This document shows positions 6,346 through 43,636 of a stretch of DNA of 64,000 bases, piece by piece (positions within the stretch are counted from its first letter, which is position 1; each line of letters starts with the position of its first letter). Source of the DNA: Eledone cirrhosa (lineage: Eukaryota); contig OZ024740.1 of NCBI GenBank assembly GCA_964016885.1, positions 191,022,001 through 191,086,000 on the forward strand, given 5' to 3'. The position numbers and the translations under genes are program-made. Under the pieces are notes generated by a model. It was not told the DNA's origin. It saw nothing but the letters and a program-made list of their open reading frames with translations, and did not search any database.

Positions 6346-6357
6346 ATTATTATTATT

Positions 6358-6538
6358 GGTGGATTGGCAGTATCGGTAGAGGGTCGGACGCCATGCTTTC
6401 CAGCATAGTTACGTCCATTTATGATCTGAGTTCAAATCCCGCCGAGGTTGACTTTGCCTTTCATCCTTACGGGGTCGATAAAATAAAGTACCAGTAATGC
6501 ACTGGATAATTGCTGGCCTTGTGCCTAAAGTAGAAACA

Positions 6539-6571
<33 letters not shown>
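6358..6571 (+). mobile_element. tRNA-derived SINE with (TTA)n tail
   Basis: A-box-like TGGCAGTATCGG, B-box-like GAGTTCAAATCCC, core GACTTTGCCTTTCATCCTTACGGGGTCGATAAAATAAAGTACC (recalled as Meta-domain/cephalopod SINE-like). Homologous copies at 13458, 43459 and 44618. Confidence 0.85.
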
Positions 6572-6786
6572 GAATGCCATGGTTGACGGAGGCTCGGCTC
6601 TGTAAGTTATAGTAATTTTTAACCGTTAAAACAATTGTAAATTGTTTAAAACTTGAACCAAATTGTTGATAAAGACAACCTCCTCCTCGTGAGAGGGGTC
6701 TTTCTGTCCGTTATTTGGCCCTTCGGGGTTAAATAACCAGTTATTGGGGTTTTGTACCCAATATTCATTTTAAACAAAAAAACAAC

Positions 6787-8837
6787 ATGGCTACGAAAAA
6801 GGAATTTCATACGTCACTCCCACTCATTACGTCTTCTTCTTCCTCAATCATCACTACAGCAGAGAGAAGATTGTCTCTCTCCCTCCCTTCTTTAAATGTG
6901 TCTCTCTCCCTCCCTTCTCTTTCGCAAGTGACGATAAAAAAGAAAAGTCTCGTGCAAAGCGTGCAAGGTTTCTCCACGACGACGACGACAGCGACGAAAC
7001 AGGTGTGCGGGAAATACGAAAACCCAGTTCATTCGTCTGACGTCAGGAATAATAGCAGTAGCAGCCGTAATAACAACAGCAACAGTGACAATGAAAACAA
7101 CAGTAGCAGCCGCAACAGCATCACTAGCAGCATAAACAACAACAGCATTAGCAGCAGCAACACCAACAACAACCACAGCAACAGCGGCGGAGGCAGTAGT
7201 CGTAGTGCCTGCAGCAACAACACAAGTACCAGCAGCTCTGACAACAACAACAACAGCAGAGAAAAAACAATCTCATTTGCAGGTATTGCGAAAAACTTGG
7301 AAACAATCCTCATAACAAATGAGGAATTAGAGGAAGCGAAGAAGATGGTGACAAAGAACGGACACCGAGCAATCTGCAAGGCAGCGGAAACATTTTTCGA
7401 AACCCAAGAGCACTGTACCGTCACGTACCGTACAGTAAGTACAAAATCCCGTAGGGTGGAAAGAGCCACAGAGGCCCAAATACAAAAAGCCTTGGGGTCT
7501 GTGTGGCAGCGGAAAACGCACATCACCCGAGGCAAAAAATATGCCACCGTAGACGTACTTTTTGCCACACCCCAGGAGGCAAAGGCCCAATCAGTAGTGA
7601 CCCTAAGGAGCGAGAAAATGGTGTTGGTGCCCTCCTACTGCGGGCAAAAAATTGTGAGGTTCAAACTGACCCACGTCCCCCCCGGAATGACCCCTTCTTG
7701 GCTGGCCGCGTCTGTCCTCGTCGGAATCGAGGACAAAACAACTGTACTGCAAGTACAGTAAGAGAAGATTGGGTCGGCTCCTCGATTGAGATGCTAATCC
7801 AAACCAACCAGGAGTGCATCGAAGCTATCCCGGATGTGATAGACTTCGATAACGGCACTCAACTGCCCATAAGTGTTGAGGGCAAACGCCCGAAATGCTT
7901 TCGCTGTGGATCGAAGACTCACCTCAGGGCCTTCTGCAACGAGAAGACCCTGAGAAAGGAGAAAACCCCCCTCCTTCCGAATCCGGCTCCACGGCTACCA
8001 GCAACAGGACAAGCGGCAACCAGGAACGATAGGTCCGTGGCACCCATACCCACTCCACGGAAATCAAAAACAGCAGTAGCAGTGGAAATATTAACAACAA
8101 CAACAGCAATACCAAATGCAGCTGCAACAGAGACTCCAGTGCAAACATCACCAACAACAACAAGTGAAAGAGTGGAGCTGGTACCCCTCCCCGACCTCAC
8201 AGAATCAGACATGGAGTGTGAGGTGGGAGAGAGATGGCAAAAGGTCGTAGAAAGGCACAAACGCAGAAGCAGCGCATCGTCGCCTTTGAAAAGGGAGGAA
8301 AGAAATGAGAAAAGGGTAAAGTCTACTGCAAAGAGACCCACAGCAGCAACACCACCAACACCATCACCACCCACACTAGCACCACCATCACCACCGGCGA
8401 CAACCCCACCGCCAACACCTTCAACACCACCACCACAAGCACCAACATCGCAAACACAACAACAAAACACACACACCCAGCAACAACGACAAGAAAATAG
8501 CAGAAACACACCCCACCCCTAGAAAAACAAATGCACGGCAATAAATACACACAAGAAACTAATGACTTACATAATTGAACACACAGACATTTCACAACAC
8601 GACTACATAATACCAGCACCAATCAAAACGCCAACTAACATAAGACTGCTAAAAATAGCACAGCAACAATACACAAACATTAAAACGAAATTCCCCAACG
8701 CAGTTGGTGATTTCAGGGACCCAGGAGGAACTATCAATCGAAGAGTATATTCAGACATTCTCTTAGAAGAGCCGACGACCAGCCGAAGGACAATTCAAAG
8801 GTCCCTTCACCAGACGATCAAGTGGAAAGGGATGTAA
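6787..8837 (+). pseudogene. Tx1 ORF1 (gag-like, CCHC knuckle), frameshift near 7760 and stop at 8520-8522
   Basis: ORFs 6787-7761, 7503-8522 and 8562-8837; zinc knuckle CFRCGSKTHLRAFC; Ser/Asn and Pro/Thr low-complexity blocks; homologous to 28014-29513(-). Confidence 0.85.
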
Positions 8838-8904
8838 AAACCATCCCTCATCTACGAAAAGTACGGTAAGTGGTCTTTCCCATCTTATCCACTCTATTTT
8901 AAAC

Positions 8905-11900
8905 ATGACCTCACTCAGAATAGGCAGCATAAATGCGCGTGGCTTGGGGTCGTCATGGAAGCAGGGTCACCTGCTCAACGACCTCAGGTCACTAAACATA
9001 GATGTAGTGGCCATCAGCGAGACCAGAATCTCTGAAGCACGGGCCTTCGCACCGATCTTCGGCAGCTACGATGTGTACGCATCTCCCAGCCGTCCTGGAT
9101 CGAGGGGAGGAGTTGATGTGCTTTTTCGGAGAGGTTTGGATCTCGCCATACGGGCCATCTTCCTGGACCCAGAGGGTAAGCTGGTGGTGCTGGACGTGAC
9201 CAGCGGAGACGGGCAAGCTTTCAGGCTAGTGGCCGTCTATGCCCCGACAGGAGCAGGGCGGCCTGATTTCTTCCGGCGTCTGGAGACCTTTCTTGGAACG
9301 TCCCGCTCTTTAGTGTTAGTGGGCGACTGGAACGGGATCTTAGATGCATGCTGGGACTGTGTGGGATTAGCGGATAGTGGTGGAGGGTGCAAGAGCCTCA
9401 CCAACCTGCTCAGGCGTTTTGAACTGTCTGACAGGTACCGATTGGATTTCCCGAATGCGCCAATGTGGACTTGGACAAATCGCATAGGGTCATCCAGATC
9501 ATATCTAGATAGAGTATTTTGGAGGGAAATAGATAGGTCTAGCATAGGCTGTCCACAATTCAAGATAGTCAGCTACACGGACCACAAATTCGTGATCTGT
9601 GTGCTTGACTTAGATAGGCACAATAGACAAGGACCAGGCTACTGGAAGCTAAATGCGTCCTTACCAGCGCGCAAGGCCTACAGAGACCGGATTAGCGAAC
9701 TAGTTAAGCGGGCGTTGACGGGGGCCATCGTCAACAACAAGTGGTGGTTTGCTCTGAAAAGAGCGATTAGAATAGAATCGATTAGGTTTAGTAAGGCTTT
9801 AGCAATAGAGAAAAATAGAGCAGAGGGAGAACTAGTTAGAAAATTAGACGAGGCGCTTAGCAAAGGCATTGCGACCGACGTGCTTGCGGCGAAATTGGCC
9901 CTTGACCAATTCTTCAATGCAAAGCACGAAGGCTGCGTTGTCAGAGCTAGGGTGCGTGCTCTCAGACACGAGGGGACGAAAGCCGTTCAATGGGCCCGAG
10001 TGGCGGAGGCGCGTCGTGGCAACAAACCACGATCCGGTCTTTGGTGGACCACGACGGGCGCATGCTACTCGATCCCGGGCAAATGTGTGAAGCTTTTCAG
10101 CGACACTTCGCTCAGCTGTTCGGGGGCAGCGGGGGGCCGGGTAGAGGGATGGTCTTTAGTGTCTACCTCGACGGACTGCCGCGGCCCTCGGCCACTGAGG
10201 CGATAACAGCCGCTGAAGTAAGGGAGGCAATGACTGGCTGCACAAGGGGTAAATCACCTGGTTTGGATGGTCTGCCCTATGAACTTTACGTACAGATGCC
10301 AGACTTGTTCGGAGGCCTCTTGGCGGACGTCTACTGCAACTGGCAACAGAACGGGAGAACTCCCAGTTCTGTGAGCCGAGGAGCGGTGGCACTGCTGAGA
10401 AAGGATCCGAACAAGGGGGATAACATAGAAAATTTCCGGCCCATAACTCTGCTAAACACAGAGTCTAAGATTTTGGCCAAGGTGCTAGCAAAGAGGTTGG
10501 CGCTTGTCGTTGGTGGTCTGGTGGGAGAGGCGCAGACATGCGCCATTCCCGACAGATCCATCCGCGACAACCTCCACCTCATGCGATACATCGTAGAGAG
10601 GGTAGCTAGGGAACCTGGCACGGGTGGGTCCTTGATCAGTTTAGATCAGTCGAAAGCTTTGGATAGGGTCGACCATCGTTACCTAGCGGCAGTCCTGAGG
10701 GCGGCTGGCTTTGGGCCCGTCTTCAGAGGCTGGATCGCTGCCATGCACAGCGACATCTGCTCTGTGGTGAGAGTGAACGGTCACCTGTCGGAACCGTTCA
10801 ACATCATGCGCTCGGTCCGCCAAGGATGTCCCCTCTCGTCCCCCTTGTACGTATTGACTCTCGAGCCATTACTGCACAAACTGGAGACGTTGAGGGGAGT
10901 CCCGCGCGAACTAGGATGCGGAAGATCCGTGACAGCATATGCGGACGATGTAACCGTAGTGGTGTCGAACGCCAAACACATCGAGGCGATCGGCACTACA
11001 CTAAGAGAATACGAAGCGGTGACAGGAGCAATGATCAACCAGGAAAAGTCAGTGGGCCTGCAGCTCGGCACCTGGAGAGGCAGGTCCATGCCGTCCCACA
11101 GCGTCGTCGGGCGCTGGACGGACGGACCGGTTAAATTGCTAGGGGTCTGGTTCGGACCGGACCTCCAGACGGACAAAAACTGGGACGAGGTGACGAGCAG
11201 GGTGGCTTCTCTCACCCAGAAATGGGCGGAGAGGAAGCTATCCCTGAAAGGTCGAGCGGAGGTGGCTAACGCGTACATCGCGTCTGTCATCTGCTACCGC
11301 CTAACCGTCGTACCTTGTCCTAAGCCTCGCCTGACTGCGCTGGAGCGTTTGCTCTTTCGCTTTTTGTGGATGGGACGTGCTCCGATGGTCAGGCGGTCCA
11401 TCTGTTGTCAACACCCGCTACGTGGAGGGCTGGGCATGCCGTGGCTGATAATGCGCAGGCACGCGCTCAGGCTACGACATCTCCACCTCTTCCTCGACGG
11501 TGATCAGGTGTGGTCGCTGTTTGCTAGACGCGTTTTTCCCCAGCTCGTTTCCTTGACGGAGCTGCAGTCCTGGGTCAAGCGAAGACCGAGAGGGAGCGCC
11601 TGGAGACTGGAATGTCTTCAGGCGCTCACAGCCCTCGACCAATCGGGCAATGTGATCGGTGGAAACTCCACCTCGGCGTTCTATAGAGGATTAGTGGAGG
11701 GTAAGAGCGACGACGTACTTGGGGAAACTCTAGGCGTCGACGAAAATCAACTAGCCAATCTCTTCGGAAGAACTTTCGGGCCGGGGCCTATGGACAACTT
11801 CCAGAAATCTCTGGCCTGGCAGTGCTACCGAGGAGCCTTGCCAGTTCGGGATAAACTCTACAGGCATGGAGGTGCCGTCAGCCGGGCATGTCCGAGATGC

Positions 11901-12305
11901 GCGCAGGGCGACGAAACCGTCCTGCACGCACTCGTCCAGTGTCCGAAAATTGCTGACTTGTGGGTTTATGTCGAACACCTGCTGTCGCGTTTAGGGCAGA
12001 TCCAGCTATCATCTGAGTCCATCGTGAGGATTGCCCCGCCCTCCTCCTTTAGCCGGGAAGGGCAGGCAGTTTTTATCTGTCTGGTGGCCATGGCGAAAGA
12101 GATAGTATGGTGGACACGTTTGAAAGGGCTGAAGACGAGCACTTACCTCTTCGGTGATGCTCTGATTGACTTTTTCAAATTTCATTTGAAAAGGAAAATC
12201 AGAGTAGAGAGGGAAGTGCTCTCTTCCCAGCATTTTGTTGAAAGATGGGTGAGAGAAGCAAGAATGGCCCGAGTGAATGGGCCTACTCTGAGTATATATC
12301 TGTAA
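8905..12305 (+). pseudogene. Tx1 ORF2: APE endonuclease + reverse transcriptase + C-terminal zinc finger; single frameshift near 10025
   Basis: SINARGL, ISET, VYAP, GDWN, YLDR, TDH (APE); KSPGLDG, FRPITLLN, VRQGCPLS, YADD (RT); CPRC..ETVLHALVQCP. Confidence 0.93.
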
Positions 12306-12579
12306 ATTAAAGGTGGAAAACTGGGAGAGGGCACTTGCCTTGGTGGTCAGGGTCATTGTGGCTTTTTACTGGGCTTTCTCAACAAATGTCCCTCCGAAGT
12401 CTCCCCCCTATTGGGGAATTTTTCATTGTTATTTTTTTGTTACATCCTCTGTTTTTGTTTTTTACACGCAGAAATGCCGATTTGTACCGTCCTGCATTGT
12501 CCTGCACTGTCCTTAATGTCTACTTTATGTAAACCCTTGTGGTTAATAAAGAAAACATTATTATTATTATTACTATTAA

Positions 12580-12615
<36 letters not shown>

Positions 12616-13457: not shown

Positions 13458-13653
13458 ATTTTTGGCAAAGGGATGTCGATTACATCGAACCCAGTTCGTG
13501 ATGGGTAGTTTATTTTATCGACCCTCGTAACGATGGAAGGCAAAGGTAACATCAGAGGAATTTGCACTCAAAACATAAAATGACGTAATCTATGCTGCAA
13601 AGTTTTACCGATCGTGACAACCGACGCTTTACCGATCGTGACAATTCATTTCC
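13458..13653 (-). mobile_element. Older, diverged copy of the tRNA-SINE
   Basis: Reverse strand CCTTTGCCTTCCATCGTTACGAGGGTCGATAAAATAAACTACC matches the SINE core; short internal duplication at 13605-13643. Confidence 0.7.
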
Positions 13654-13679
13654 CTAATAATAATAATAACAATAATGAT

Positions 13680-25224: not shown

Positions 25225-26667
25225 ACTCTTTTACTCTTTTACCCGCTTCAGCCATCCGGCTGAGGCCATGCTGGGGAACCGCCCTTGTTGCTAAACATTT
25301 TATCTCCAGCCTGTATAGGTTTCCACTGGTTTAAGAGGGAGTTTGCTGCTGCTGCTCTTAGGTTTCACTCGTGTCTTCCTGTGGGATCATCCGGGATCCT
25401 GGATAACAAGTTGTCGAGATGTTTCATGAAGACATCCACCTCCACGTCATGCAGATCTCTCAGGTCCCTCGGCAGCCTGTTGAAGAGCTGAGGGCCCTTG
25501 AATCCCAGGCTATTGCAATACCTGCTCCTTATTCTAGATATGGAAGACGGGACCTTTGGCACCACACAGTGACGTCCTGTTCGACGGTTGGTCCAGCTCC
25601 CAATGCCAAAGTTTGTTGCTAGTCCCTCCAGGATTTTCCACATGTAGATCACTGCGTATCTCTCCCGTCTTCGCTCCAAGGAGTAGAGGTTCAGTTCCTT
25701 TAGCCTCTCCCAGTAGCTTGTCTCCCTCATCTTGGCAATCCTCTTGGTGTAGCTTCGCTGGATTGCCTCAAGCTCCGTGGTTAGTTTGACACTATGGGGT
25801 GACCACAACTGGGAGCAGTAGTCCAGGCGGCTTAGGACAAATGTCCTCCATAATGTCAACATGGTGTCTCGAACTCTTGTCCGGAAAGTCCTCAAGATCC
25901 AGCCAGCGAGTCGTCTGCACATTGTCGCCACTTTCATGACGTGTGAAGAAAAAGATGCATCATCGCTCATGTCTATGCCCAGGTCTCGTATCGATTTTGA
26001 CACGGGGATATCGGTCCCTCCTGGTCCCGTGTAGTTGTGTTCCACTATATTTATGTTTGCAGGTTTGTTTAGAGGTTTGTATTGTAGGGCTTGGAATTTG
26101 CCAGCATTAAACTGCATGTTGTTTTCTTCCGCCCATTTGTATATGGCATCCAGATCCTGCTGTAAAAGGGCAGCGTCAGCCGGGTTTTTGATTGCCTGTG
26201 CAACCATAGTGTCATCAGCATAGCTAGTGAGGGTTGTTGTTGTATGTACTACAGAGGGCATGTCTGAGAGAGCCACCAAAATCACTAGTGGTCCCAGGAC
26301 TGTCCCCTGGGGCACCCCGCTTGTTATTGGTGTTTCCTTTGAGAGGGCCCCATTTGCTGCGACTACCTAGCTTCTGTCCCTTAGGAAGCCATGCAGCCAC
26401 TCACCTACTTTTCCAGTTATGCTGAGTCCGTGTAGTTTCGAACATATCATTCAGTGGTCGACCTTGTCAAAGGCCTCCGCAAAGTCAAGATATATCACGT
26501 CCACATGTGAGCTGTCTAGTTGTTGTCTCAGTACCCAGTCGTAGTGATGTAGCAGCAGTGTAAGGCAGCTTCTTCCTGGACAGAGGCCATGTTGCGTGCT
26601 AGTCAGGCGGTCATTTTCCTCGAGGAAAGTGATTAGTTTCTTTCTGACGACTCGCTCCATGACCTTT
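25225..26667 (-). mobile_element. 5'-truncated CR1/L2-group LINE (RT and C-terminus)
   Basis: YLDFAEAFDKVDH, PQGTVLGPL, YADD, LDYCSQLWSP, LYSLERRRERY; 3' tail (TAAAAGAG)2 next to (TA)n. Confidence 0.88.
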
Positions 26668-29513
26668 CGCAGCGCTCAGCGTCGACCGTCGAGATGCGCG
26701 GCAAGCCGTCAAGGTAGGGACTGACATCCGCTACTTTCTCAGACTCGCCACTCCTCCCGAACAACCGAGCAAAGTGCTGGCGAAAGGCCTCACACATCCG
26801 CTTGGAATGGCTTATCTCGTGTCCGTCTCGGTTCGCCAAAGACCGAATTGTGGTTTTATTTCCACGCTGCGCCTCTGCCACGCGGGCCCATCGAACAGCT
26901 TTGGTTCCCGCGTTTCTCAGCGCACGCGCCTTAGCTCTGACAATGCAACCTTCGTGTTTCGCATTGAAGAAATCGTCTGATGCCATTCTCGCCGCTAGCA
27001 CGTCAGTTGCGATGCCACTACAAATAGCCTCGTCTAACTTATCTACCAGCTCCCCCTCCTTTCTATTTTTCTCTAACGCTAGTTCTTTTCTGAACTCTAT
27101 CGAAGTTAGTCTAATCTCTCTTTTGAGAGCCCCCCCCCCCCCCCACCATCTGTTGTTGATGATCCCCCCTGTCAACTTTCGCTTAACTAAATTTTTGACT
27201 CGGTACCTGTAAACCATACGTGCCGGAAATGACATGTTCAGCTTCCTGTAACCCGGTCTTAACCTACGAATTTTATCTAGGTCGACCGTACAGATCACAA
27301 ATTTGTGAACTGAATAGGCGACCGTTTTAAAAAGTGGACAGCCCCCACTATTTCTATCTATTTTCCTAATTAATATTCTGTCTATGTACGATCTAGATGA
27401 CCCCATTCGGTTGGTCCATGTCCACGTTGGCACATTGGGGAAATCTAGTCGGTACCTGTCAGACAGTTGGAACTGGCTGAGTAGTTGCTTGAGGCTTTTG
27501 CACCCCGCGCTCCTATCGGCTACTCCCACACAATCCCAGCGTGCGTCTAAGATGCCATTCCAGTCCCCTGCTAACAGTAAAGGGCAAGACGTACCCAGAA
27601 AGGACTCCAGGCGCCTAAAGAAGTCCGGTCGTCCGGCCTCTGTAGGGGCGTAGACGGCCAGCAGTCTAAAGGCACCACCTTCGCTACTGCTCACATCCAA
27701 GACCACCAACTTACCGTCCGGGTCCCGGAAGATCGACCTTACCTCGAGATCCAGTCCTTTCCTAAACAGCACTGCCACCCCAACCCCCATTCCCGGTCTG
27801 CTATTAGATGCGAAGTTGTGATAGTCTTCGAAAATGGGGGCTAGTGCGCGCGTGTCGAAAATCTGCTCTCGCTGACGGCAATCACATCCATTTCCAGCGA
27901 CCTGAGGTCGTTGAGCAGGCGACCCTGCTTCCAGCGTGACCCCAGGCCGCGAACATTTAAACTTCCTACTCTTAATATGGCCATATTGGTAAGCTAAGAG
28001 AGAGAGGGAAGGTTTACTTACCTCCCGGGGTCCTGTGAAGATCGGGTTGTTCGACCGCCATGGTTGGTGGGGTTTCTTTTGGGAACCCCTTTAAAAGTCT
28101 TGATGTGGGTTTCACATTCGGAGTTCCCACGTCATGAGGAAAGCTCTCTCGAATTTCTTTGAAGGAATTCGGACCAGAAGCAAATCTTCGGGCACGCAAA
28201 ATGTGCTCATTTCAAACATCTCCCCCTCCGTTTGAATGTCCTCGCTTCGTGCTAACAGCGCCATCAGTTTATCGTTGGCCCATCTGACAAGCACCAAGGT
28301 TTTAACATTTTGTTGGTGTGGTTTCATTTTTTTCGTTTTGGTGACTGTGGTGGTGATGGTTTTGGTGGTGTTGTTTCGGGTATGTCTATGTTTGTTGTAG
28401 GTGTGGGTTCTGCAATATCAGGTATTTGTGTGTTTATTTGTACTTGTGTTTGTTTAGGTTGTTTGCGTTTCGGGGATTGTGGTAGTGGTGTCGATGTTGC
28501 TGTTGGTGATGATGTTATTGTGAAAGTGTTTGCATTAGTGGTGTCTGTATTTGTTGTTGTGTATGTTTTTGTGTTATTTTGGGCTTTTTTTGTGAGTTTT
28601 CTCTGTTTTTTTGCACTTTTGGGTTTTCCTTCATCTTCGCTGCTGGAAGAGAAAGGGTCTGTGGCTGTGAGTGTCTCTGTGTCTGTGTGTGCGTTTATTG
28701 TTTTGTCTATGTGTATAACGGGGGGGGGTAGGGGGAGTGGGAAAGCTTTCCTCCTTTTCCACTTGGATTGGTTTTGGTGTTGGTGGTGATCCGGCTGTTT
28801 TTGATGTTGGTGTCTGTGTTTTTGTTGGTGTTGTTTTTGGTGGTGGTGGTGGTGCAGCTTTCCGTGCTGACAGTGGCGTTGGCAACAAAGAAGGTTTGCC
28901 ACCCCCTGCAATTTTGCCCTGAGTGCAGAATGCTTGCAGATGGGTTGCTTCCCCGCAGACGAAGGAGCGAGGGCTTCTTCCGTCAATGATTAGTTGGATT
29001 GTTGTCCCGTCCTGCAGGTGGGCAAAATCCGGGATGTTGTTCATGTCCTCCGGTTTCATTTCGAGAAGAATCTCCAAATCCATTCTGGACCAGTTCTCTC
29101 TCTCTGTCCTGTTGATATCCAGGAGGTTAGTGTCTGTCCCCTTCTCGATTACGCATCCTAGCAGCCACCATATGTTCATTCCTGGTGGAATGCTGGGAAT
29201 GCGGACCTTTACTGTCCTTTTACCAATGTAGGACGGATGCATGATAATGCGTTCCGTTCTGCAGGGGGTCGCCGAGTACTTAATAGTGAGGGCCTCGGTT
29301 TAGAACAGTACCAAGATGTTACCGAACTGTTTGCCTCTTGCTGTATACTCTATGTTACTTCCGATGAACTCCAAAGCAGCCTCGACCTCTGCTTGGCTAG
29401 CAAATTCCACTTTTCGTTTCTGCACCGAAATGCATCGAAAGAACACCGTCCTCCTTTGCATGGCCGCTATTGCCTCGTCCGGGATGGTCAGGTTTGCCCA
29501 GGACTTCTCCCGT
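26668..29513 (-). mobile_element. Second, diverged Tx1 element: partial ORF1 + APE part of ORF2; truncated at both ends
   Basis: ORF2 ATG at 27984 (MAILRVGSLNVRGLG); ORF 26633-27790 is homologous to 8905-10206; ORF1 pieces with knuckle (S)FVCGEATHLQAFC; 5' end abuts (ATT)n on its own strand. Confidence 0.9.
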
Positions 29514-29560
<47 letters not shown>

Positions 29561-29562
<2 letters not shown>

Positions 29563-32500
29563 AGACGCACGAGGTGACGGAGGTCATGAAATCGCTCCCG
29601 TAAGTTTTGAATTTTTAACATATTTAAATCATTTGTGAAATAACAACTCTTAGTACAAATGCTATGTAAAGCACCCGGCTTGAGCCCCAAAAAAATTCGG
29701 ACCCAAAATATATTGTTATAAGGCTCAAATATTCAAATATTCAACTTTGTATTGTACACTGTATATCCCAAAAAAAATGGCTATAAATGGAAGAAGAAGA
29801 ACCCCCCCCCCCTCCTCTCCTCTGGCTACACTATATAGGACAGCTAAACTCACCAACACCAGAAACTAGATACACCACCCACCCCATCATCTGTGTACAC
29901 TGAACACAACAGCATTTTCACCTTCACCGCCACCGCTCACTACGGCCATCATTACCACCACTATCCCATCACCGCCGCCACCACCCCTTGACTCCTTCAC
30001 TGCTGCTGCCACCGCTACAGCACCATCACTACAGTAATACGGCTCAAATATTCAAATATTCAACTTTGTATTGTACACTGTATATCCAAAAAAAAATAAA
30101 ATGGCTATAAATGGAAGAAGAAGAACCCCCCCCTCCTCTCCTCTGGCTACACTATATAGGACAGCGAAACTCACCAACACCAGAAACTAGATACACCACC
30201 CACCCCATCATCTGTGTACACTAAACACAACAGCATTTTCACCTTCACCGCCACCGCTCACTACGGCCATCATTACCACCACTATCCCATCACCGCCGCG
30301 ACCACCCCCTGACTCCTTCACTGCTGCTGCCACCGCTACAGCACCATCACTACAGTAATACGGTCGCATCACCGCCACCACTGCCTCGGTATCGACATCA
30401 CCACCACCACTGTCTCAGTATCGCCAACGCCGCCAGTCTCTGCTGGCTACCACTTCCACATTATAGAATTCCTACTACTAACAAAGAGGAAGGCATCAAA
30501 ATATATAGATAGACTCAAAAGAAAAAAGAAAAAACAAACAACAAAAGCAGCACAGCAACAACAGTAAAAAACGAGAAAAACAGAGAAAAACAAAAACAAA
30601 AAAAGAAACCCCAAAAACGTAAAGAAAATAAGAATGAAGAGAGAAGCAGGCGGACGGACAGAGAAGAGGGGGGAAAAAGTAAAACTTAAAAAACAAAAAC
30701 TAAGTCAGACATTCGAATACTACATTACAATGAAACTTATGCTTATTCATTTTGGGGGCCCTTTCTGCCCGTGTGTTTGTTTGTTTATGTGTGTCCGTAT
30801 ACAGCGTGGTGATAATGCCACACAAGGGCCAAGTGGGATGGCGGATCCACAGATGGCTATGTAAACATACATTCGCCAATCCTCGATAAGAATGTTTAAA
30901 TATCGAACATAAACAGTTCGAATAACGGTGAAATGGAGACTAGAACGTCATGTGACAGACTCTCACCCAACAAGTGCCCCCTGGCTCAGCAGCAGGAACC
31001 TGACTGTCAACCAAATACTGCTGATGTTGGAGGAAGAAGAAGAAGGAAAGGGGCCAGAACCAACTGGACGAAAGAATTGAATAGAACTGTTATGCAATGC
31101 TACCTGAAAAGTAACCCCAAGGAGAGGGGCTACAGGAGACGGATGCATAACATCTGGAACGAGATTGGTTTATTTAAATTAGATGAACAAAAATTGGCCG
31201 GGCAGGCTCGGGTAATAAGAACTAATGGGTGGATAAGCGAGCTGGAACTGGAGGAACTGAGCAGAGAGAATGGCTTGGAGATGGCGGGTGTAGTATGCCA
31301 GACAAGCGAGCCGGCGGGAAATGAAGGTGAGGAGGTCCTGAGAACGGAGGAACCACCCGAAGCAGACAATGATCTGAATACTGAGATAAATAATACCTGG
31401 AACAGAGAAACGGCCACTGAGGAGATGAATGCTGACGGGCTAGGACAAGATTCGGTTGACATCCTAAATTTAGTGGTAGATGAGTTGAACAATGATAGTG
31501 GGAGACCTATGAACCTAAGATTTGTAGACAGGAAAAAGTTAAAAGAAACAACAGCTAAGGTAAACAAAGTCATCCCATACCTTGAGGCGAGGAGTCTTCA
31601 CCAGTGCAACAATATCCTCAAAGCAACAGCAAATACGGTGAGGAAACTACTTGGTATAAAAGCGAGAGGAAACAACAGACAAGACAGAGCAGAGCCGTGG
31701 TGAAGAAGCGACTGAGTGGGCAAATCGGGGAAATGAGAAATGACATAGGAAAGCTTGAGTCACTACTGAATGGGACACTAAAAAACATAGGCACTAAAAA
31801 TAGACTGGAAATAAAATACAAAACTAGGAGTAAAAAGCTAAATATTTTCATAGAGGAATTGAAGCAACGCATTGTAGCAAAGAGTGCCAAAATCAGGCGA
31901 TACGAGAACAGAGTCAGTCAGTATAAACAGAACCGCATGTTCGACAACAACCAGAAGATGCTGTTTGGACAGCTTGAGGTGAAAGAAAGAGGCAACGACT
32001 TGATCCCTGGGGCGGAACAAGCTAAAACATTCTGGAGAGGAATATGGGAGCAGGATGTTAGACACAATGCCCAGGCAGGGTGGATTGAGACAGTACAGAG
32101 GGAGATCGGTGAGCAGGTACAGCAACAGACTGATTTGAGTATCACAGTTGAAACTCTTAAGGGGCAAGCCAAAAAACTAACCAACTGGAAATCACCAGGC
32201 CCAGATGGTGTGCAGGGGTATTGGATTAAACATTTAACATCCCTCCACCCGAAGCTGACGGCCATGTTCAATGACTGCTTGGTGTCGGGTGAGGTGCCAG
32301 AGTGGTTGACAAAAGGTACCACAGTTCTGATAATGAAAGACCGAATCAAGGGTAATGATGTTACCAACTATAGGCCTATCACATGTCTGCCCGTAATGTG
32401 GAAACTGTTGACGAGCATTGTGTCTGAGTAATTCTACCATCACCTCCACACAAACAACTTGTTGCCGGACGAACAGAAAGGATGCCGAAAGAAGTCACGT

Positions 32501-34409
32501 GGTACAAAGGACCAGTTGCTTATTGATAAGATGGTAATGGGGAATTGCAGGAGGAGACACACTGATCTTGCCATGGGATGGATAGACTACAGAAAGGCAT
32601 TTGACATGGTGCCTCATTCCTGGATCACCAAAAGCCTGGAGATCTTCAGGTTGGCAGATAACATCAGACAGTTGCTGGGCAGGAGTATGGGGTCCTGGGA
32701 GACAGAGTTGACATCAACTGGAGTATCCTTGGGAAGCGTGAAGATCAAGAGAGTATCTTCCAGGGAGATAGCCTGTCCCCTCTGTTGTTTGTCCTTGCCC
32801 TGATGCCCTTGACCATTATGCTGCGAAAAGTGAGAGCAGGATACAAGTTGGGAAGGGGAGAGCTTACCATCAATCACCTCCTCTTCATGGACGATCTTAA
32901 GCTCTTCGGGAAAAGTGAGAAGGAGTTGGATGTGCTTGTTGACACTGTCCGTATTTTCAGCAGTGATATATGTATGCAGTTTGGTATTGGTAAATGTGGA
33001 GTCATTGTGATGAGGAGGGGTAGGTTGAGCAGAAGTAACGGGATCCAGATACCAACAGGTGAGATGATAAAGGAAATTGACTCTGAGGAAGGATACAAGT
33101 ATTTGGGCGTTCTGGAGGCTGATGGCATAAAGAACAAAAAAATGAAGGAATTGTTAAGAACTGAATACATTCGGAGAGTAAGGAGCGTATTGAAGTCACA
33201 TCTGAACAGCAGAAATGCCATAAGCGCAGTAAATTCCCGAGCTGTGTCTATTATTAGGTACAGTGCGGGAATTCTGAGATGGAATGTTGCTGAACAAAAA
33301 GAAATGGATAGGAAGACTAGGAAGCTATTGACTATCTACAACATGTTCCACAAGAGGAGTGATGTCGATAGACTCTACCTAAGGACATCTGAGGGTGGAA
33401 GAGGTCTTATCAGCATAGAGGACTGTGTTCAGATGGAGAAAAACAACCTATACAAATACGTGACCTATAGTAAGGAGCCAATGCTCAGAGCTGTACTGAA
33501 GGAGGGGACAGTAGGCCAGGGGATACCCAAGGAGGAAATAACATCAAGGAGGAAGAGCAGCCTTAAGGGAAAATCCCTTCATAGTACCTTCTTTGAGAAA
33601 ACTGAATTTAGAGATCCACAGACATGGAACTGGTTGAGAAGAGGAGACCTCAAAAAGGCTACAGAAGGAATGCTAATGGCTGCGCAGGAGCAGGCCCTCT
33701 AAACGAAGTGGTTGAAGCACCATATCTACAAGGAGGAGGCTAGCCCACTGTGCATGATCTGTGGAGAGAGAGAGGAGACTGTGGCTCACATTGTGTCCGA
33801 GTGTAAACACCTAGCCCAGACCCACTATAAGGGCTGGAAACACGATGTGATGGGCAGGGTGATCCACTGGCACCTGTGCAAAGTAAACAATCTACCACAT
33901 TCTGAGAAATGGTATGAGCATAGGCCAGAGGCGGTGATGGAGAACAGTCAGGTGAAGGTGCTGTGGGATTTTAGGATACAGACGGACAAAAAACTGGAAC
34001 ACAATAGACCTGACCTGGTGGTTGTGGACAAAGAAAAAATATCGTGCCTGATTGTGGATGTGGCCTGCCCGTTCGACACGAGAGTGCAAGAGAAGGAGAG
34101 GGAGAAAATTAACCGATACCAGGACCTAAAGTGGGAGGTGAAAAGGATTTGGAACTGCCATGAAGTCAAAGTGATCCCGATTGTCATAGGCGCACTGGGG
34201 ACTATCTCCAAAGGTTTCCAGGGATGGTTAAAGAAAATCGGCCCCTTCACGCTTTTTGGAACGCTTCAAAAGGCATGCTTGCTTGGAACGGCAAGAACCC
34301 TCCGATACGTCCTGAATATCTGAGGCTGCAGGTAGTGGCTTGATATTCAATCCAACGGACTTTCCAGTTAACCAACATCAATGACTGAGATTCAAGGAAT
34401 AACAATAAC

Positions 34410-34448: not shown

Positions 34449-37400
34449 TACCAGCACTATCATTACCACCACTACCCACCCCTTCACTCCTTCACTGCTG
34501 CCACCGCTACAGCACCATCACTACAGTAATACGGTCACATCACCGCCACCACTGCCTCGGTATCGACATCACCACCACCACTATCTCAGTATCGCTACCG
34601 CCGCCAGTCTCCCACTTCTCCCTGCTGGCTGATACTTCCACATTATAGAATTCCTACTACTAACAAAGAGGAAGGCATCAAAATATATAGATAGACTCAA
34701 AAGAAAAAAGAAAAAACAAACAACAAAACCAAAGCAGCACAGCAACAACAGCAAAAACGAGATAAACAAACAGAGAAAAACAAAAACAAAAAAAGAAATC
34801 CCCAAAACGTAAAGAAAATAAGAATGAAGAGAGAAGCAGGCGGACGGACAGAGAAGAGGGGGGAAAAACTAAAACTTAAAAAACAAAAACTAAGTCAGAC
34901 ATTCGAACACTACATTACAATGAAACTTATGCTTATTCATTTTTGGGGCCCTTTCTGCCTGTGTGTTTGTTTGTTTATGTCTGTTCGTATACAGCGTGGT
35001 GATAATGCCACAAAAGGGCCAAGTGGGATGGCGGATCCACAGATGGCTATGTAACCATACATTCGCCAATCCTCGATAAGAGTGTTTAAATATCGAACAT
35101 AAACAGTTCGAGTAACGGTGAAATGGAGACTAGAACGTCAGGTGACAGACTCTCACCCAACAGGTGCCCCCTGGCTCAGCAGCAGGAACCTGACTGTCAA
35201 CCAAATACTGCTGATGTTGGAGGAAGAAGAAGAAGGAAAGGGGCCAGAACCAACTGGACGAAAGAATTGAATAGAACTGTTATGCAATGCTACCTGAAAA
35301 GTAACCCCAAGGAGAGGGGCTACAGGAGACGGATGCATAACATCTGGAACGAGATTGGTTTATTTAAATTAGATGAACAAAAATTGGCCGGGCAGGCTCG
35401 GGTAATAAGAACTAATGGGTGGATAAGCGAGCTGGAACTGGAGGAACTGAGCAGAGAGAATGGCTTGGAGATGGCGGGTGTAGTATGCCAGACAAGCGAG
35501 CCAGTGGGAAATGAAGGTGAAGAGGTCCTGAGAACGGAGGAACCACCCGAAACAGACAATGATCTGAATACTGAGATAAATAATACCTGGAACAGAGATA
35601 CGGCCACTGAGGAGATGAATGCTGACGGGCTAGGACAAGATTCGGTTGACATCCTAAATTTAGTGGTAGATGAATTGAACAATGATAGTGGGAGACCTAT
35701 GAAGCTAAGATTTGTAGACAGGAAAAAGTTAAAAGAAACAACAGCTAAGGTAAACAAAGTCATCCCATACCTTGAGGCGATGAGCCTTCACCAGTGCAAC
35801 AATATCCTCAAAGCAACAGCAAATACGGTGAGGAAACTACTTGGTATAAAAGCGAGAGGAAACAACAGACAAGAAAGAGCAGAGCCGTGGTGGAAGAAGC
35901 GACTGAGTGGGCAAATCGGGGAAATGAGAAATGACATAGGAAAGCTTGAGTCACTACTGAATGGGACACTAAAAAACATAGGCACTAAAAATAGACTGGA
36001 AATAAAATACAAAACTAGGAGTAAAAAGCTAAATATTATCATAGAGGAATTGAAGCAACGCATTGTAGCAAAGAGTGCAAAAATCAGGCGATACGAGAAC
36101 AGAGTCAGTCAGTATAAACAGAACTGCATGTTCGACAACAACCAGAAGATGCTGTTTGGACAGCTTGAGGGGAAAGAAAGAGGCAACGACTTGATCCCTG
36201 GGGCGGAACAAACTAAAACATTCTGGAGAGGAATATGGGAGCAGGATGTTAGACATAATGCCCAGGCAGGGTGGATTGAGACAGTACTGAGGGAGATCGG
36301 TGAGCAGGCACAACAACAAACTGAGTTGAGTATCACAGTTGAAACTCTTAAGGGGCAGGCCAAAAAACTAACCAACAGGAAATCACCAGGCCCAGATGGT
36401 GTGCAGGGGTATTGGAGTAAACATTTAACATCCCTCCACCCGAAGCTGACGGCCATGTTCAATGACTGCTTGGTGTCGGGTGAGGTGCCAGAGTGGTTGA
36501 CAAAAGGTACCACAGTTCTGATAATGAAAGACCGAATCAAGGGTAATGATGTTACCAACTATAGACCTATCACATGTTTGTCCGTAATGTGGAAACTGTT
36601 GACGAGCATTGTGTCTGAGGAAATCTACCATCACCTCCACACAAACAACTTGTTACCGGACAAACAGAAAGGATGCCGAAAGAAGTCACGTGGTACAAAG
36701 AACCAGTTACTTATTGATAAGATGGTAATGGGGAATTGCAGGAGGAGACACACTGATCTTGCCATGGGATGGATAGACTACAGAAAGGCATTTGACATGG
36801 TGCCTCATTCTTGGATCACCAAAAGCCTGGAGATCTTCAGGGTGGCAGATAACATCAGACAGTTGCTGGGCAGGAGTATGGGGTCCTGGGAGACAGAGTT
36901 GACATCAACTGGAGTATCCTTGGGAAGCGTGAAGATCAAGAGAGGTATCTTCCAGGGAGATAGCCTGTCCCCTCTGTTGTTTGTCCTTGCCCTAATTCCC
37001 TTGACCATTATGCTGCGAAAAGTGAGAGCAGGATACAAGTTGGGAAGGGGAGAGCTTACCATCAATCACCTCCTCTTCATGGACGATCTTAAGCTCTTCG
37101 GGAAAAGTGAGAAGGAGTTGGATGTGCTTGTTGACACTGTCCGTATTTTCAGCAGTAATATATGTATGCAGTTTGGTATTGGTAAATGTGGAGTCATTGT
37201 GATGAGGAGGGGTAGGTTGAGCAGAAGTAGCGGGATCCAGATACCAACAGGTGAGATGATAAAGGAAATTGACTCTGAGGAAGGGTACAAGTATTTGGGC
37301 GTTCTGGAGGCTGATGGCATAAAGAACAAAAAAATGAAGGAATTGTTAAGAACTGAATACATTCGGAGAGTAAGGAGCGTATTGAAGTCACATCTGAACA

Positions 37401-38598
37401 GCAGAAATGCCATAAGCGCAGTAAATTCCCGAGCTGTGTCTATTATTAGGTACAGTGCGGGAATTCTGAGATGGAATGTTGCTGAACAAAAAGAAATGGA
37501 TAGGAACACTAGGAAGCTATTGACTATCTACAACATGTTCCACAAGAGGAGTGATGTCGATATACTCTACCTAAGGAGATCTGAGGGTGGAAGAGGTCTT
37601 ATCAGCATAGAGGACTGTGTTCGGATGGAGAAAAACAACCTATACAAATACGTGACCTATAGTAAGGAGCCAATGCTCAAAACTGTACTGAAGGAGGGGA
37701 CAGTAGGCCAGGTGATGTCCAAGGAGGAAATAACATCAAGGAGGAAGAGCAGCCTTAAGGGAAAATCCCTTCATAGTACCTTCTTTGAGAAAACTGAATT
37801 TAGAGATCCACAGACATGGAACTGGTTGAGAAGAGGAGACCTCAAAAAGGCTACAGAAGGAATGATAATGGCTGCGCAGGAGCAGGCCCTCAAAACGAAG
37901 TGGTTGAAGCACCATACTTACAAGGAGGAGGCTAGCCCACTGTGCAGGATCTGTGGAGAGAGAGAGAAGACTGTGGCTCACATTGTGTCCGAGTGTAAAC
38001 ACCTAGCCCAGACCCACTATAAGGGCTGGAGACACGATGTGATGGGCAGGGTGATCCACTGGCACCTGTGCAAAGTAAACAATTTACCACATTCTGAGAA
38101 ATGGTATGAGCATAGGCCGGAGGCGGTGATGGAGAACAATCAGGTGAAGGTGCTGTGGGATTTCAGGATACAGACGGACAAAAAACCGGAACACAATAGA
38201 CCTGACCTGGTGGTTGTGGACAAAGAAAAAAGATCGTGTCTGATTGTGGATGTGGCCTGCCCGTTCGACACGAGAGTGCAAGAGAAGGAGAGGGAGAAAA
38301 TTAACCGATACCAGGACCTAAAGTGGGAGGTGAAAAGGATTTGGAACTGCCATGAAGTCAAAGTGATCCCGATTGTCATAGGCGCACTGGGGACTATCTC
38401 CAAAAGTTTCCAGGGATGGTTAAAGAAAATCGGCCCCTTCACGCTTTTTGGAACGCTTCAAAAGGCATGCTTGCGTGGAACAGCAAGAACCATCCGATAC
38501 GTCCTGAATATCTGAGGCTGCAGGTAGTGGCTTGATATTCATTCCAACGGACTTTCCAGTTAACCAACATCAATGACTGAGATTCAAGGAATAACAAC

Positions 38599-38630
<32 letters not shown>

Positions 38631-38637
38631 TAATAAG
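34449..38637 (+). mobile_element. Dong family A copy A3, 5'-truncated in UTR, head-to-tail behind A2
   Basis: Starts directly in the (AAT)n tail of A2 and ends in its own (AAT)n tail. Confidence 0.95.
35123..38515 (+). CDS. Uninterrupted 1130-aa R4/Dong polyprotein: N-terminal DNA-binding region, RT, CCHC finger, restriction-like endonuclease
   Basis: WTKELNRTVMQCY N-terminus; [33 protein letters not shown]; [18 protein letters not shown]; RHD; RPDLVVVD..IVDVACP..KINRY (PD-(D/E)xK). Confidence 0.95.
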   Translation: METRTSGDRLSPNRCPLAQQQEPDCQPNTADVGGRRRRKGARTNWTKELNRTVMQCYLKSNPKERGYRRRMHNIWNEIGLFKLDEQKLAGQARVIRTNGWISELELEELSRENGLEMAGVVCQTSEPVGNEGEEVLRTEEPPETDNDLNTEINNTWNRDTATEEMNADGLGQDSVDILNLVVDELNNDSGRPMKLRFVDRKKLKETTAKVNKVIPYLEAMSLHQCNNILKATANTVRKLLGIKARGNNRQERAEPWWKKRLSGQIGEMRNDIGKLESLLNGTLKNIGTKNRLEIKYKTRSKKLNIIIEELKQRIVAKSAKIRRYENRVSQYKQNCMFDNNQKMLFGQLEGKERGNDLIPGAEQTKTFWRGIWEQDVRHNAQAGWIETVLREIGEQAQQQTELSITVETLKGQAKKLTNRKSPGPDGVQGYWSKHLTSLHPKLTAMFNDCLVSGEVPEWLTKGTTVLIMKDRIKGNDVTNYRPITCLSVMWKLLTSIVSEEIYHHLHTNNLLPDKQKGCRKKSRGTKNQLLIDKMVMGNCRRRHTDLAMGWIDYRKAFDMVPHSWITKSLEIFRVADNIRQLLGRSMGSWETELTSTGVSLGSVKIKRGIFQGDSLSPLLFVLALIPLTIMLRKVRAGYKLGRGELTINHLLFMDDLKLFGKSEKELDVLVDTVRIFSSNICMQFGIGKCGVIVMRRGRLSRSSGIQIPTGEMIKEIDSEEGYKYLGVLEADGIKNKKMKELLRTEYIRRVRSVLKSHLNSRNAISAVNSRAVSIIRYSAGILRWNVAEQKEMDRNTRKLLTIYNMFHKRSDVDILYLRRSEGGRGLISIEDCVRMEKNNLYKYVTYSKEPMLKTVLKEGTVGQVMSKEEITSRRKSSLKGKSLHSTFFEKTEFRDPQTWNWLRRGDLKKATEGMIMAAQEQALKTKWLKHHTYKEEASPLCRICGEREKTVAHIVSECKHLAQTHYKGWRHDVMGRVIHWHLCKVNNLPHSEKWYEHRPEAVMENNQVKVLWDFRIQTDKKPEHNRPDLVVVDKEKRSCLIVDVACPFDTRVQEKEREKINRYQDLKWEVKRIWNCHEVKVIPIVIGALGTISKSFQGWLKKIGPFTLFGTLQKACLRGTARTIRYVLNI

Positions 38638-38640
38638 TAA

Positions 38641-41600
38641 AGAAAACGCACGTGGTGGATAGAGCGTTATGGAATCGCTTCCGTAAGTTTTTGATTTTTA
38701 ACATGTTTAAAACAATTGTGATATAACAATTCGTAGTACAAATGGGACATAATATCCTGTTATATCGCTCAAATATTCAATTCTGTATTATAAATTTTAT
38801 ATTCAAAAAAGAAAACCCCTCTGTCTACAATATATAGAACAGCCAAATAACAGCAATTTCACCACCGCCACAACCTAGATTCACCACCTATCCCACTACC
38901 CCTATGTGTACACTAAATACAACAGCCAGATAATGGCAATTTCACCACCATCACCAACACTACCAATTCCTGCATAATAATAATAATTACTATTATTGTA
39001 TCGCAAGTTTTCTCAAAATGTTTAGTTCAAATATTAAGAAAATATGTCAACATATATATATATTAAATAGGCGACAAAGCGCATAGATATACAAATCAAA
39101 CAAACGCATACCAGTTACAGTCTATTCAACAGAACTCAGTAACGACAACGCCATCACTACATTAACCACCACCACCACTCCATCATTGCTACCACTATCC
39201 CATCACCGCCGCCACCACTCCATCATTGCTACTCCACTACCTTCTGTTAACTTAAGAAAGTGGAAGGTGGCGGTATCACTAGACAATGGAGAGGCTAGCA
39301 AAATATATCAATAACTGACTTAGTGACCCGGGAAACGTCAAAGACTATGTCACTGCTGGCTCCACCCTTCCCCACCCAAAATAGAAAAAGCCCCATCACC
39401 ACCACCGACATAGCCAACAACAACAACAAGCAACTTCAACAAAAAGAATATTATATTATTAATAATAATTTCATTATTAAGACACGCTGTGCTCACATTA
39501 AGGAACCACTCATGAAAATAACAATTTAAAAAACAAAAAAAGGAAATCTCCGTGACCAATAAATACCGGGATGGCGGCCGGCGGGGGATGGCCGTGTCTC
39601 TAGAGGAGGACAACCCATATAGTCGTGGTTGACCATCGTCCTAGGAGTGGTAACACGAAATCATTACCCTTTGGCGGTTAAGGATAAAACGCAAGAAAAT
39701 AAAGTCTATGTCAAATGATAAAATCTCATACCGAATCGGCCGAAAGTCGGGTCAAAAAGGGCCGCGTCCCTCAGAGAGAAACCAGACTGGGGTCGGAAAA
39801 TCAGCTAATGGTTCAAACCTTCCCATCACTTCGGAGCTGGTGACCCCCAATAACCGGAATACTCCTACTGTTGGCCCTCCATGTTCAACACCAAGACATC
39901 TAAAGAAAAAGAGAGAAAAATGGTCAAGGGAAGACAATAAAGAAGTCATTGAGGTTTTCTACACTGCCATGCACTACCCATCAAATAGATCGAACACAGA
40001 ACAAACATATATCAACTGGAAAAAGAAACATCCCGAAAACAGAGGCTATATTGACAGTAACAAACTAGCCAATATACAAAGAAACATTGTTAAAAACAGT
40101 TACTAACTGATATAGAAATTGATCAGATCAAGCAATTAGCACAAAGTCAGCGAAAAAAGAATGAAACATGTGTCAGTGAAAACAAGGTAAATTGTATCAC
40201 TTCAAATCTCAGGGTTGGGGCAGAATCACTGATAGCAGAACAAATTAAAGAAAGGATCGAAAAAGTGGAGGGAGTGCATGCTCAAGATGAAACTCGAAAT
40301 GTAAACAATTAGATCGTAAATGATAAAGAAATGAATGAGAATGAACTTGCCAACTTGAAGGATGAAATTATGATCGAAAGGATGAAAATGAAAGAATCTG
40401 ACAAGAGGAAACGAGACACTCTCCCTAAGATCCAGAACTCCAAACAGAACTAAAAGAAAATACACAAGACTAACATAATTCTCAAAACAATTATTATCAA
40501 AAACAAACTAAACATTACTGATCTAACTCATTTCTATTATACATTGGCTTAAATCACCTCTCACTTATGTGGAGTGAAGATGAAAAAAATAAACGAATTC
40601 CCACAAGAAACCTACGTGGCAAGAGAAAATCAATCGCCAAATAAACCTTCTCCGATCTGACACAGAAATGTTAACAAACTACAAAGTAGGTGAACATGTT
40701 AAACAAACAAAACATAGAAGATTGAAAAGAAAATAGTGTATAAAATCAACAAGTGATATAGGCATGCTGATAGAAATAATCAAGCAATAAGTGTCGGCCA
40801 AAGCTGCTCGTATCAGGCGCTTTGAATAACGATCTAGATTCTATAAGGACAACAAAATGTTCAAAAACAACCAAAAAAACATCTACAGAAAAATTGGCAA
40901 GTCAACAATAACTGCAAAATCAATACCACCCAAGGATGAAGTGCAAGAATTCTGGGAAAAGATCTGGGCCGAAGAAAAAGTTCATAATATACATGGCCCA
41001 TGGATAGACAGACAAATGAAAGATACAGCTCACCTTCAGGAGCAAACATGGGAAAATATAACAGTTGAACAGTTGCGTTTGGCACTTAGAAAAACCAGCA
41101 AATTGAAATCCCCAGGAAAAGAGAAAATACCAAATTTTGGATAAATGCCTTCACAGATTCTCATGAGCTGTTAGCCCAACTTTACAATGAAATGGTTAAG
41201 GAGCCAGACAAGATATCATCATGGCTTGTTAACGGCATTACATTCCTACTTCCGAAGAATGATGAGACAAACAATCCCCAAAATTACAGACCGATAACGT
41301 GCTTGACCACAATGTATAACATTTTAACATCAGTCCTAACTGAATATACACATGATCACCTGATATCAAAGATCTATTTCCCAATGAGCAGACAGGGTGT
41401 AAACGAGGCTCATATGGCTGTAATGTTCAGCTTTTGGTTAACAAAATGTTACTGGAAGATTGTCATAATAGACACAAAAATCTATCAATTGCTTGGATAG
41501 ATTACAAAAAAGCATTCGATAGTTTGCCACACAGTTGGATTGAAAAAATGTTTAGAGATTTTCAAAATATCTTCCGTTGTCAGGAGGTTCCTGTCATTTA

Positions 41601-43414: not shown

Positions 43415-43458
<44 letters not shown>
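38641..43458 (+). mobile_element. Dong family B copy B2, apparently full length but heavily decayed
   Basis: ORF pieces 39708-43270 (WSREDNKEVIEVFY, YRPITCL, CMDDLKLF, RHD, KYKDL); same 3' UTR as B1; (AAT)n tail. Confidence 0.92.
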
Positions 43459-43620
43459 TGTTTCTACTTTTGGCACAAGGCGAGCAATTACCAGTGTATT
43501 ACTGGTAATTTATTTTATCGATCCCGTAATGATGAACGGCAGGATTTGTACTCAGACTTGCAAGGGCCGTAACTATATACGTCAAAGCATGGCGTCCTAT
43601 CCTCTACCGATACTGCCAAT
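43459..43620 (-). mobile_element. tRNA-SINE copy (internally deleted) between (AAT)n tracts
   Basis: Reverse complement matches 6358-6540 at the head (ATTGGCAGTATCGGTAGAGG) and tail (CCTTGTGCCAAAAGTAGAAACAATTATT). Confidence 0.85.
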
Positions 43621-43636
43621 ATAATAATAATAATAA

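Follow-up and report, generated by a model that had tools for sequence, protein, structure and literature searches.

Tx1 and Dong elements, which belong to the APE and RLE branches of the non-LTR retrotransposons, carry related leaders at their 5' ends in the genome of Eledone cirrhosa. From about +40 to an ATG, the Tx1 and Dong leaders are very likely of common descent. On balance, the favored reading is that a 5' UTR of Tx1 type, with an internal promoter, was grafted once onto Dong and was later swapped among Dong lineages.

Elements in the Window

The window, i.e., the whole stretch of 64,000 nt that was analyzed, is composed of LINEs nested within (AAT)n/(ATT)n. The family names used here (T1-T9, Dong A-C and RLE3) are labels coined in the present analysis. 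The features are the following:

6539..6571, plus strand: (ATT)11 target microsatellite preceding the Tx1 element; ATT is found before 23/23 leaders of family T1
6572..6786, plus strand: 5' UTR of Tx1 family T1, with a donor-like GTAAGT at 6602-6607, hairpins and an A-run
6787..8522, plus strand: Tx1 ORF1, ATG at 6787; frameshifted in the window copy, open in the family consensus
8767..12305, plus strand: Tx1 ORF2 (AP endonuclease, RT, zf-RVT), frameshifted
12557..12612, plus strand: (ATT)n closing the 3' end of the Tx1 element
26633..29514, minus strand: 5'-truncated copy of T2, a second Tx1 family
29515..29560, plus strand: (TAA)15, target common to T2 (minus strand) and Dong A (plus strand)
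29561..29779, plus strand: Dong A leader of Tx1 type, with donor at 29600-29605, AT-rich intron-like stretch, A-run and ATG at 29777
29561..34397, plus strand: Dong A element, with a broken RT-RLE ORF and a 321-nt tandem duplication at 29718-30363
34449..38589, plus strand: 5'-truncated Dong A copy; its RT-RLE frame (35090-38515) is unbroken over 1141 codons
38636..38815, plus strand: Dong B leader of Tx1 type, with donor at 38683-38688 and acceptor AG at 38810-38811
38636..43415, plus strand: Dong B element, ORF decayed; protein 42-44% identical to Dong A
39550..39660, plus strand: GC-rich conserved segment ahead of the Dong B ORF; a Dong relative from another organism has a 5' region (L186:233-328) that matches it at 76% identity

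The segment described in an earlier note on this DNA is the first 74 nt of the T1 5' UTR (6572..6786). Both Dong leaders of the window are damaged copies: the one of Dong A is without the first 5-6 nt and the acceptor AG, and the one of Dong B has lost ~41 internal nt and the ATG. The ATG at 29777 in the Dong A leader opens no long ORF. Full-length copies of T2 elsewhere have a diverged leader, with the same layout as in T1. The tandem duplication in Dong A repeats the A-run/ATG region and defines a subfamily, accounting for ~14 of the 30 sampled A copies. A SINE-like repeat of 200 nt is also located within (ATT)n (window positions 6341-6549, 13490-13671, 43426-43636 and 44624-44815). It is frequently found upstream of Tx1 leaders, and one Dong B subfamily (L309, L310) has a piece of this repeat as a fixed part of its UTR.

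Clade Assignment

The element at 6572 encodes an ORF1 and an ORF2 with an N-terminal AP endonuclease, an RT and a zinc-binding domain (PF03372, PF00078 and PF13966). Its RT is nearer to L1/Tx1 than to R2 (E = 1e-36 for L1 ORF2p vs. 1e-19 for R2), and the second-best match of ORF2 is named Transposon TX1 149 kDa protein. Dong A has a single RT-RLE ORF without APE; Pfam gives RVT_1 alone, and R2 structures outrank L1 structures. Behind the RT, the Dong frame contains what we take to be the CCHC, RHD and PD..D motifs. The Tx1 and Dong RTs are ~25% identical. The domains, the RT E-values and the structure ranking uphold the earlier assignment of the two groups to APE (Tx1/L1-like) and RLE (R2-superfamily, Dong-like) elements. 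The label "Dong" is putative and is based on structure and target, as no named Dong/R4 protein was among the protein-search matches. Among molluscs, R4-Dong is reported to be nearly confined to cephalopods (PMC10294476), and Dong-R4 and L1-Tx1 are listed among the recently active LINEs of O. vulgaris (PMC13282606).

Leader Match and Attachment to the Elements

The three leader sequences quoted in the earlier note are present at 6572, 29561 and 38642, with GTAAGT at 6602, 29600 and 38683. Over 70-80 nt, the score of Tx1 against Dong A is 39, a value reached by 1/5000 dinucleotide shuffles and 2/5000 local shuffles; against Dong B, the score is 46 (0/5000 for both kinds of shuffle). None of 4404 AT-rich genomic tiles, taken from the fetched loci, reached 39, the top tile scoring 38. 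The match is hence significant against both shuffled sequences and AT-rich controls.

Among the best-scoring hits, the leader runs on into its element at 20/20 T1 loci and 30/30 Dong A loci. The Dong B leader continues into Dong B for at least 110 nt in 30/30 cases, and for more than 1470 nt without interruption in 21/30. For one leader subtype, loci were taken by position, and a Dong body was present behind 30 of 30. This constant attachment rules out a free-standing repeat without a fixed element. The copies are numerous: at least 1287 minus-strand exact-pattern matches were obtained for T1-type leaders (the 100 listed are all T1), and at least 1916 Dong leaders with an intact donor were counted by exact pattern, with reversed-pattern controls giving 0.

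A common start with GAA right after the microsatellite, as assumed before, does not hold. Full-length Dong begins with AGGGAAG, and GGGAA precedes the quoted start in 29/30 Dong A copies; the window copy is therefore clipped. The idea of a single target niche is correct as to the microsatellite but not as to the strand: (ATT)n precedes the leaders of T1 (23/23) and T2 (21/21), whereas (AAT)n precedes 61/62 Dong leaders and also many Dong relatives from metagenomes.

A chance likeness, or an independent short repeat landing in the same microsatellites, can hardly explain these leaders. The 70-nt score of Tx1 against Dong A is barely above the top control tile (39 vs. 38), but the constant attachment, the opposite target strands, the profile scores and the scores of family T4 against Dong (see below) refute this explanation. 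The 9-mer TGACGGAGG is common to T1 and Dong A only and absent from Dong B and C; it was not accepted as a separate exchange.

The Tx1-Type 5' UTR and Its Dong Counterpart

The module proposed in the earlier note is a real shared leader, but it extends over ~220 nt rather than 70, and several Tx1 families have it as their normal 5' UTR. It consists of a short GC-richer segment, GTAAGT, an AT-rich stretch, a hairpin, an A-run and the ATG, which is located behind the A-run at 207-233 nt from the start in T1-T5 and T7. GTAAGT is found in T1, T4, T5, T6 and T8; the canonical donor is absent in T2 and T3, which have variants, and in T7, which has none. The further Tx1 families were obtained by flank mining and patterns. 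T1, T2, T3, T7 and one T5 copy were recovered independently of the motif; T4, T6, T8, T9 and most T5 copies were recovered with donor-containing patterns.

Dong A, B and C possess a colinear version of this UTR. The similarity sets in shortly ahead of the donor and extends through the A-run to the ATG, and the donor-to-ATG distance is 170-178 nt in Dong vs. 171-185 nt in T1-T5. With the donor removed, T4 scores 92, 76 and 52 against Dong B, C and A (z of 13.1, 11.8 and 6.5; 0/500 local shuffles each); T4 is the best of 15 Tx1 rows, and the pattern that found it contained GTAAGT. The top of 2202 AT-rich tiles is 42 against T4, and 44, 56 and 42 against Dong B, C and A. The corresponding scores of T1a, also without the donor, are 55, 26 and 34. 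A profile built from Tx1 only gives 37.8 bits for Dong B, 25.5 for C, 21.8 for A and 7.5 for a divergent second C copy. The Dong-only profile, in turn, gives 46.3 bits for T4 (model positions 42-225) and no positive score for T1. The homology of the leaders is thus supported by the profile scores, the T4-Dong scores without the donor and the colinearity.

Measured globally between donor and ATG, T4 shares 65% identity with Dong B and with Dong C, which is as close as its match to T3 (65%) and T5 (68%); with Dong A, the value is 60%. T1a is 58% identical to Dong B and 53% to T2, the latter value being about background, since z is near 0 for that pair. Hence, the closest living relative found for the Dong leader is T4 and not the T1 of the window; the likeness between the window Tx1 and Dong goes back to a single UTR type from which both descend. 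T4 copies carry the Tx1 ORF1, APE and RT. No Tx1 family with a leader nearly identical to that of Dong was present among the 100 listed of 549 pattern matches. The first ~40 nt of the Dong leader match T4 poorly (18/40) and may contain the start site.

Convergence on host core-promoter and splice-donor motifs in AT-rich DNA, comparable to the downstream promoter element of insect LINEs, is very improbable. GTAAGT and T-runs are indeed simple motifs; T4, T5 and T6 have a constant 21-nt gap between a GACG-like word and the donor, with differing letters in between; and short shared downstream elements are described across retroelements in PMC4748587. All this is outweighed by ~175 nt of similarity without the donor, colinear to the ATG and far above 2202 AT-rich tiles, by which convergence is largely refuted.

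Probable Direction of the Transfer

The transfer quite likely went from Tx1 to Dong. This direction is suggested by the greater diversity of the Tx1 versions, from an ATG that opens ORF1 only in Tx1, from a hairpin intact only in Tx1 and from the absence of the leader in Dong relatives. The Tx1 UTRs are 53-68% identical, compared to 67-80% for those of Dong. The ATG opens ORF1 in Tx1 and no long frame in Dong, and the last hairpin, perfect in T2, T4 and T5, is decayed in Dong. In a tree of 15 leaders, from which the poorly alignable T6, T6b, T7 and T9 were omitted, the four Dong rows form one branch (97/99). Support for the deeper branches is weak, and the tree was rooted arbitrarily; diversity and decay are therefore what the direction is based on. 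The same picture of the leaders is obtained when actual copies are aligned.

In a search for an ORF1 relic behind the Dong ATG, 1/12 pairs exceeded z 3 over 100 nt. A candidate relic at z up to 4.4 over 250 nt is low-complexity sequence and was not accepted; one Dong A consensus contains a frame of 240 codons, which the others lack and which was attributed to composition.

Dong relatives from metagenomes were represented by 80 loci (an initial scan gave none), of which 20 with at least 200 nt before the ORF were used. No resemblance to the leader was detected upstream of any of these 20 (scores of 16-36), and 12 of them have a microsatellite junction followed by other 5' ends. Given the distance of these outgroup elements, they might have different UTRs in any case. 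Among the RLE3/CR1 loci, none of 40 matched either profile at 14 bits, the CR1 5' ends being not clearly reached. RLE3 (L283, L270, L275 and L285; window 55880-57064) inserts into (ATAC)n; its 5' end, which is sharp and rich in hairpins, differs from the leader.

Other heads were observed at the 5' ends of these relatives. A tRNA-like head is located directly after the microsatellite at L227:84-167 (Rfam tRNA, 30.3 bits), and A- and B-box-like heads were seen by eye at L190:10-85 and L210:25-95, again after the microsatellite; possibly, these are autonomous RLE elements capturing a Pol III promoter. Loci L192, L193, L201, L204, L206 and L208 share another conserved structured 5' end in the first 130 nt after (AAT)n, which is a ribozyme candidate.

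In Dong B, a GC-rich segment (39550-39660) lies ~900 nt downstream of the leader, and 4/23 of its predicted pairs are changed on both sides (four sequences). Probably, it is what remains, downstream of the graft, of an older Dong UTR. Nested helices and a pseudoknot are possible by eye, and a similar hairpin loop is visible in Dong A. An HDV-like ribozyme was found neither with our own descriptor (0/18 regions, run without a positive control) nor with Rfam. Rfam gave nothing on the leaders or the pre-ORF segment; for an SL RNA or snRNA head, no match was obtained at E up to 5 at three leader loci, although Rfam may lack mollusc SL RNA.

An unlikely alternative source for both groups is a third one, most probably the 5' end of a host gene; the same low probability covers a passage from Dong to Tx1. 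The exon, the GT-AG intron and AAAATG do resemble the first intron of a gene, a working acceptor was observed in Dong only, and the leader tree is without a root. Against these readings, the ATG opens ORF1 in Tx1 and not a long frame in Dong, the Tx1 versions are the more diverse, and Dong relatives elsewhere lack the leader.

Exchange of Leaders between Bodies

Dong A and B are 79% identical over the first 390 nt, in contrast to the 42-44% of their proteins. In a tree of 25 RT regions, Dong A and Dong B are each placed beside relatives found in other organisms; a joint clade of the two is rejected (AU p = 0.0002). One leader subtype (398 copies) is nevertheless found on both: of the first 30 loci, 20 have a B body and 10 an A body. 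As these bodies do not form a clade, the module was exchanged. Leaders of T4 are combined with two ORF1 types, and so are those of T5; the types are only ~30% identical. The exchange among elements that was proposed earlier is therefore seen as swaps within groups; across the superfamilies, the data fit one transfer and not free traffic.

Tx1 families are also arranged head to tail, behind one another's (ATT)n tails (upstream flanks of L085, L090 and L096), and Dong leaders often recur at a spacing of 4.5-6 kb in head-to-tail arrays. Both kinds of array would favor 5' swapping. In L126, L183 and L184, internal deletions, none of them beginning at the donor, have joined a T4 leader directly to Tx1 sequence from far downstream; these copies are possibly non-autonomous derivatives.

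Splice Donor and Probable Promoter Function

GTAAGT was noted earlier as a shared word, which is correct; its role as a splice donor is an addition of the present analysis. Of 1922 Dong leaders matched up to the donor, 1916 are intact and six are without GT. Five of these six are long deletions starting exactly at GT (four events), and the sixth is a small change. In L309 and L310, the exon is joined to AAAATG by an exact removal of GT..AG, without microhomology. The two are 90-92% alike, and each is 96% identical to a different unspliced copy, which makes two events likely. In the tandem pair L307/L308, the left edge of the deletion is precisely at the donor and the right edge is 5 nt before AG; in L311, the deletion also starts at the donor, and the sequence picks up again ~870 nt further downstream. 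Two positions served as controls, one 2 nt ahead of the donor and the other 5 nt behind it; of the seven hits obtained there, none was a long deletion. On the record of these deletions, GTAAGT works as a splice donor in the Dong leader and is occasionally used. Furthermore, the 16 nt around it are identical in Dong A, B and C (16/16 in all three pairs), compared to 52-88% elsewhere, depending on the segment.

No spliced copies were found for Tx1: the single match in the T1 search is a 2-nt deletion, and the T5 patterns caught an intact variant. A GT..AG joint at the donor was not present in the contigs of four runs, which are of unspecified kind and hence uninformative.

From its position, its sharp 5' end and the known biology of L1, the leader is probably an internal promoter. 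In the human L1, as described in the text of PMC5860796, the internal promoter has a splice donor whose mutation lowers promoter output, and spliced copies are dead ends. In Dong, GTAAGT would have been retained because it helps transcription, through U1 binding or an overlapping factor site. A weak acceptor would keep most of the RNA unspliced, and rare spliced RNAs would give rise to dead-end copies.

Shared descent could also be combined with a main function at the RNA level (translation, RNP assembly or export), transcription then being by read-through; this is rather improbable. The hairpins and the A-run are conserved in Tx1 UTRs, Dong copies are often in head-to-tail arrays, and the self-cleaving 5' end reported for the silkmoth Dong (PMC3774820) suits co-transcription. 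In Dong, however, the hairpin is decayed and the donor region is the best-kept part; moreover, thousands of copies have one sharp 5' end, and the leader is without a match in Rfam.

Possible Route of the Graft

Returning to an internal promoter taken from Tx1, a Dong body would have come to follow the 5' end of a Tx1 element in the same orientation. Due to their opposite strand preference, neighboring insertions in one microsatellite are back-to-back and not fused; a same-strand fusion therefore needs a template switch in the course of reverse transcription or, alternatively, a Dong insertion into the Asn-coding AAT/AAC runs at the start of the Tx1 ORF1. Nested insertion and template switch are about equally probable. 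The read-through RNA, copied by the Dong protein, would then have founded a self-transcribing family, and head-to-tail Dong arrays would have allowed Dong A, B and C to swap the leader among themselves. No clean fusion intermediate was found among 86 Tx1 leaders; one same-strand Dong fragment lies within 1.5 kb, with unrelated DNA in between. At L180, a same-strand 3' fragment of another LINE is located in the Asn-rich start of a Tx1 ORF1, ~560-1530 nt after the start of a T4 leader; by eye, it has what are presumably RNase H-like motifs.

A wider scenario is put forward tentatively. An RLE element, whose known relatives are released by a ribozyme, would have captured the intron-bearing internal promoter of an APE element (Tx1) targeting the other strand of the microsatellite, and would have become self-transcribing. 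The module would then have passed among Dong lineages that predate the host group, which may explain the expansion of Dong in cephalopods, and the tRNA-like heads seen elsewhere would be parallel captures of promoters.

Comparison with Known Systems

A swap of 5' UTRs is known inside the L1 clade; notable here are the crossing from APE to RLE and the genomic record of splicing. The transfer between the two main non-LTR branches is traceable, the donor family being still in the genome, and it shows that the control of transcription can move independently of the replication machinery. Leader capture is also a testable reason for the success of Dong in the present genome (at least 1916 leader-bearing copies). 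Several thousand donor-bearing leaders lie beside host sequence and could start chimeric transcripts. No report of a cross-branch leader transfer was found in the literature searched (Repbase reports, subscription journals and supplements were outside its scope). BovB chimeras with CR1 pieces are a cross-clade case, for which the literature search gave no confirmation.

The recruitment and exchange of 5' UTRs resemble those of mouse L1 families, in which a young 3' body acquires an older or contemporary 5' end, with recombination, heteroduplex and strand-switch models described in the text of PMC3600994. Both fusion routes proposed above would be covered by these models. The mouse exchange stays inside one clade; here, the donor is an APE element and the recipient an RLE element. 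Like the SpIREs of human L1 (PMC5860796), Dong has a splice donor in its 5' UTR and rare retrotransposed spliced copies. In human L1, according to that account, the donor region is required for promoter output, and a comparable role is proposed here. Unlike in SpIREs, the Dong intron extends from ~+45 to just before the ATG, and the spliced copies belong to a family that borrowed its leader.

A short 5' signature common to many retroelements is also known from trypanosomatids, where Pr77 is an internal promoter (PMC4748587). As described there, Pr77 is carried by L1Tc/ingi elements, which are related to one another, and by their derivatives, and it doubles as a ribozyme; the present leader is shared by two superfamilies, and no ribozyme was detected. 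As in the Dong/R4 clade of Bombyx (PMC3774820), the Dong elements of the present genome have a single RT-RLE ORF and a (TAA)n target. The Bombyx Dong, in the same account, cleaves itself at the 5' end, while the Dong described here has a UTR of 1.1 kb headed by a leader of Tx1 type.
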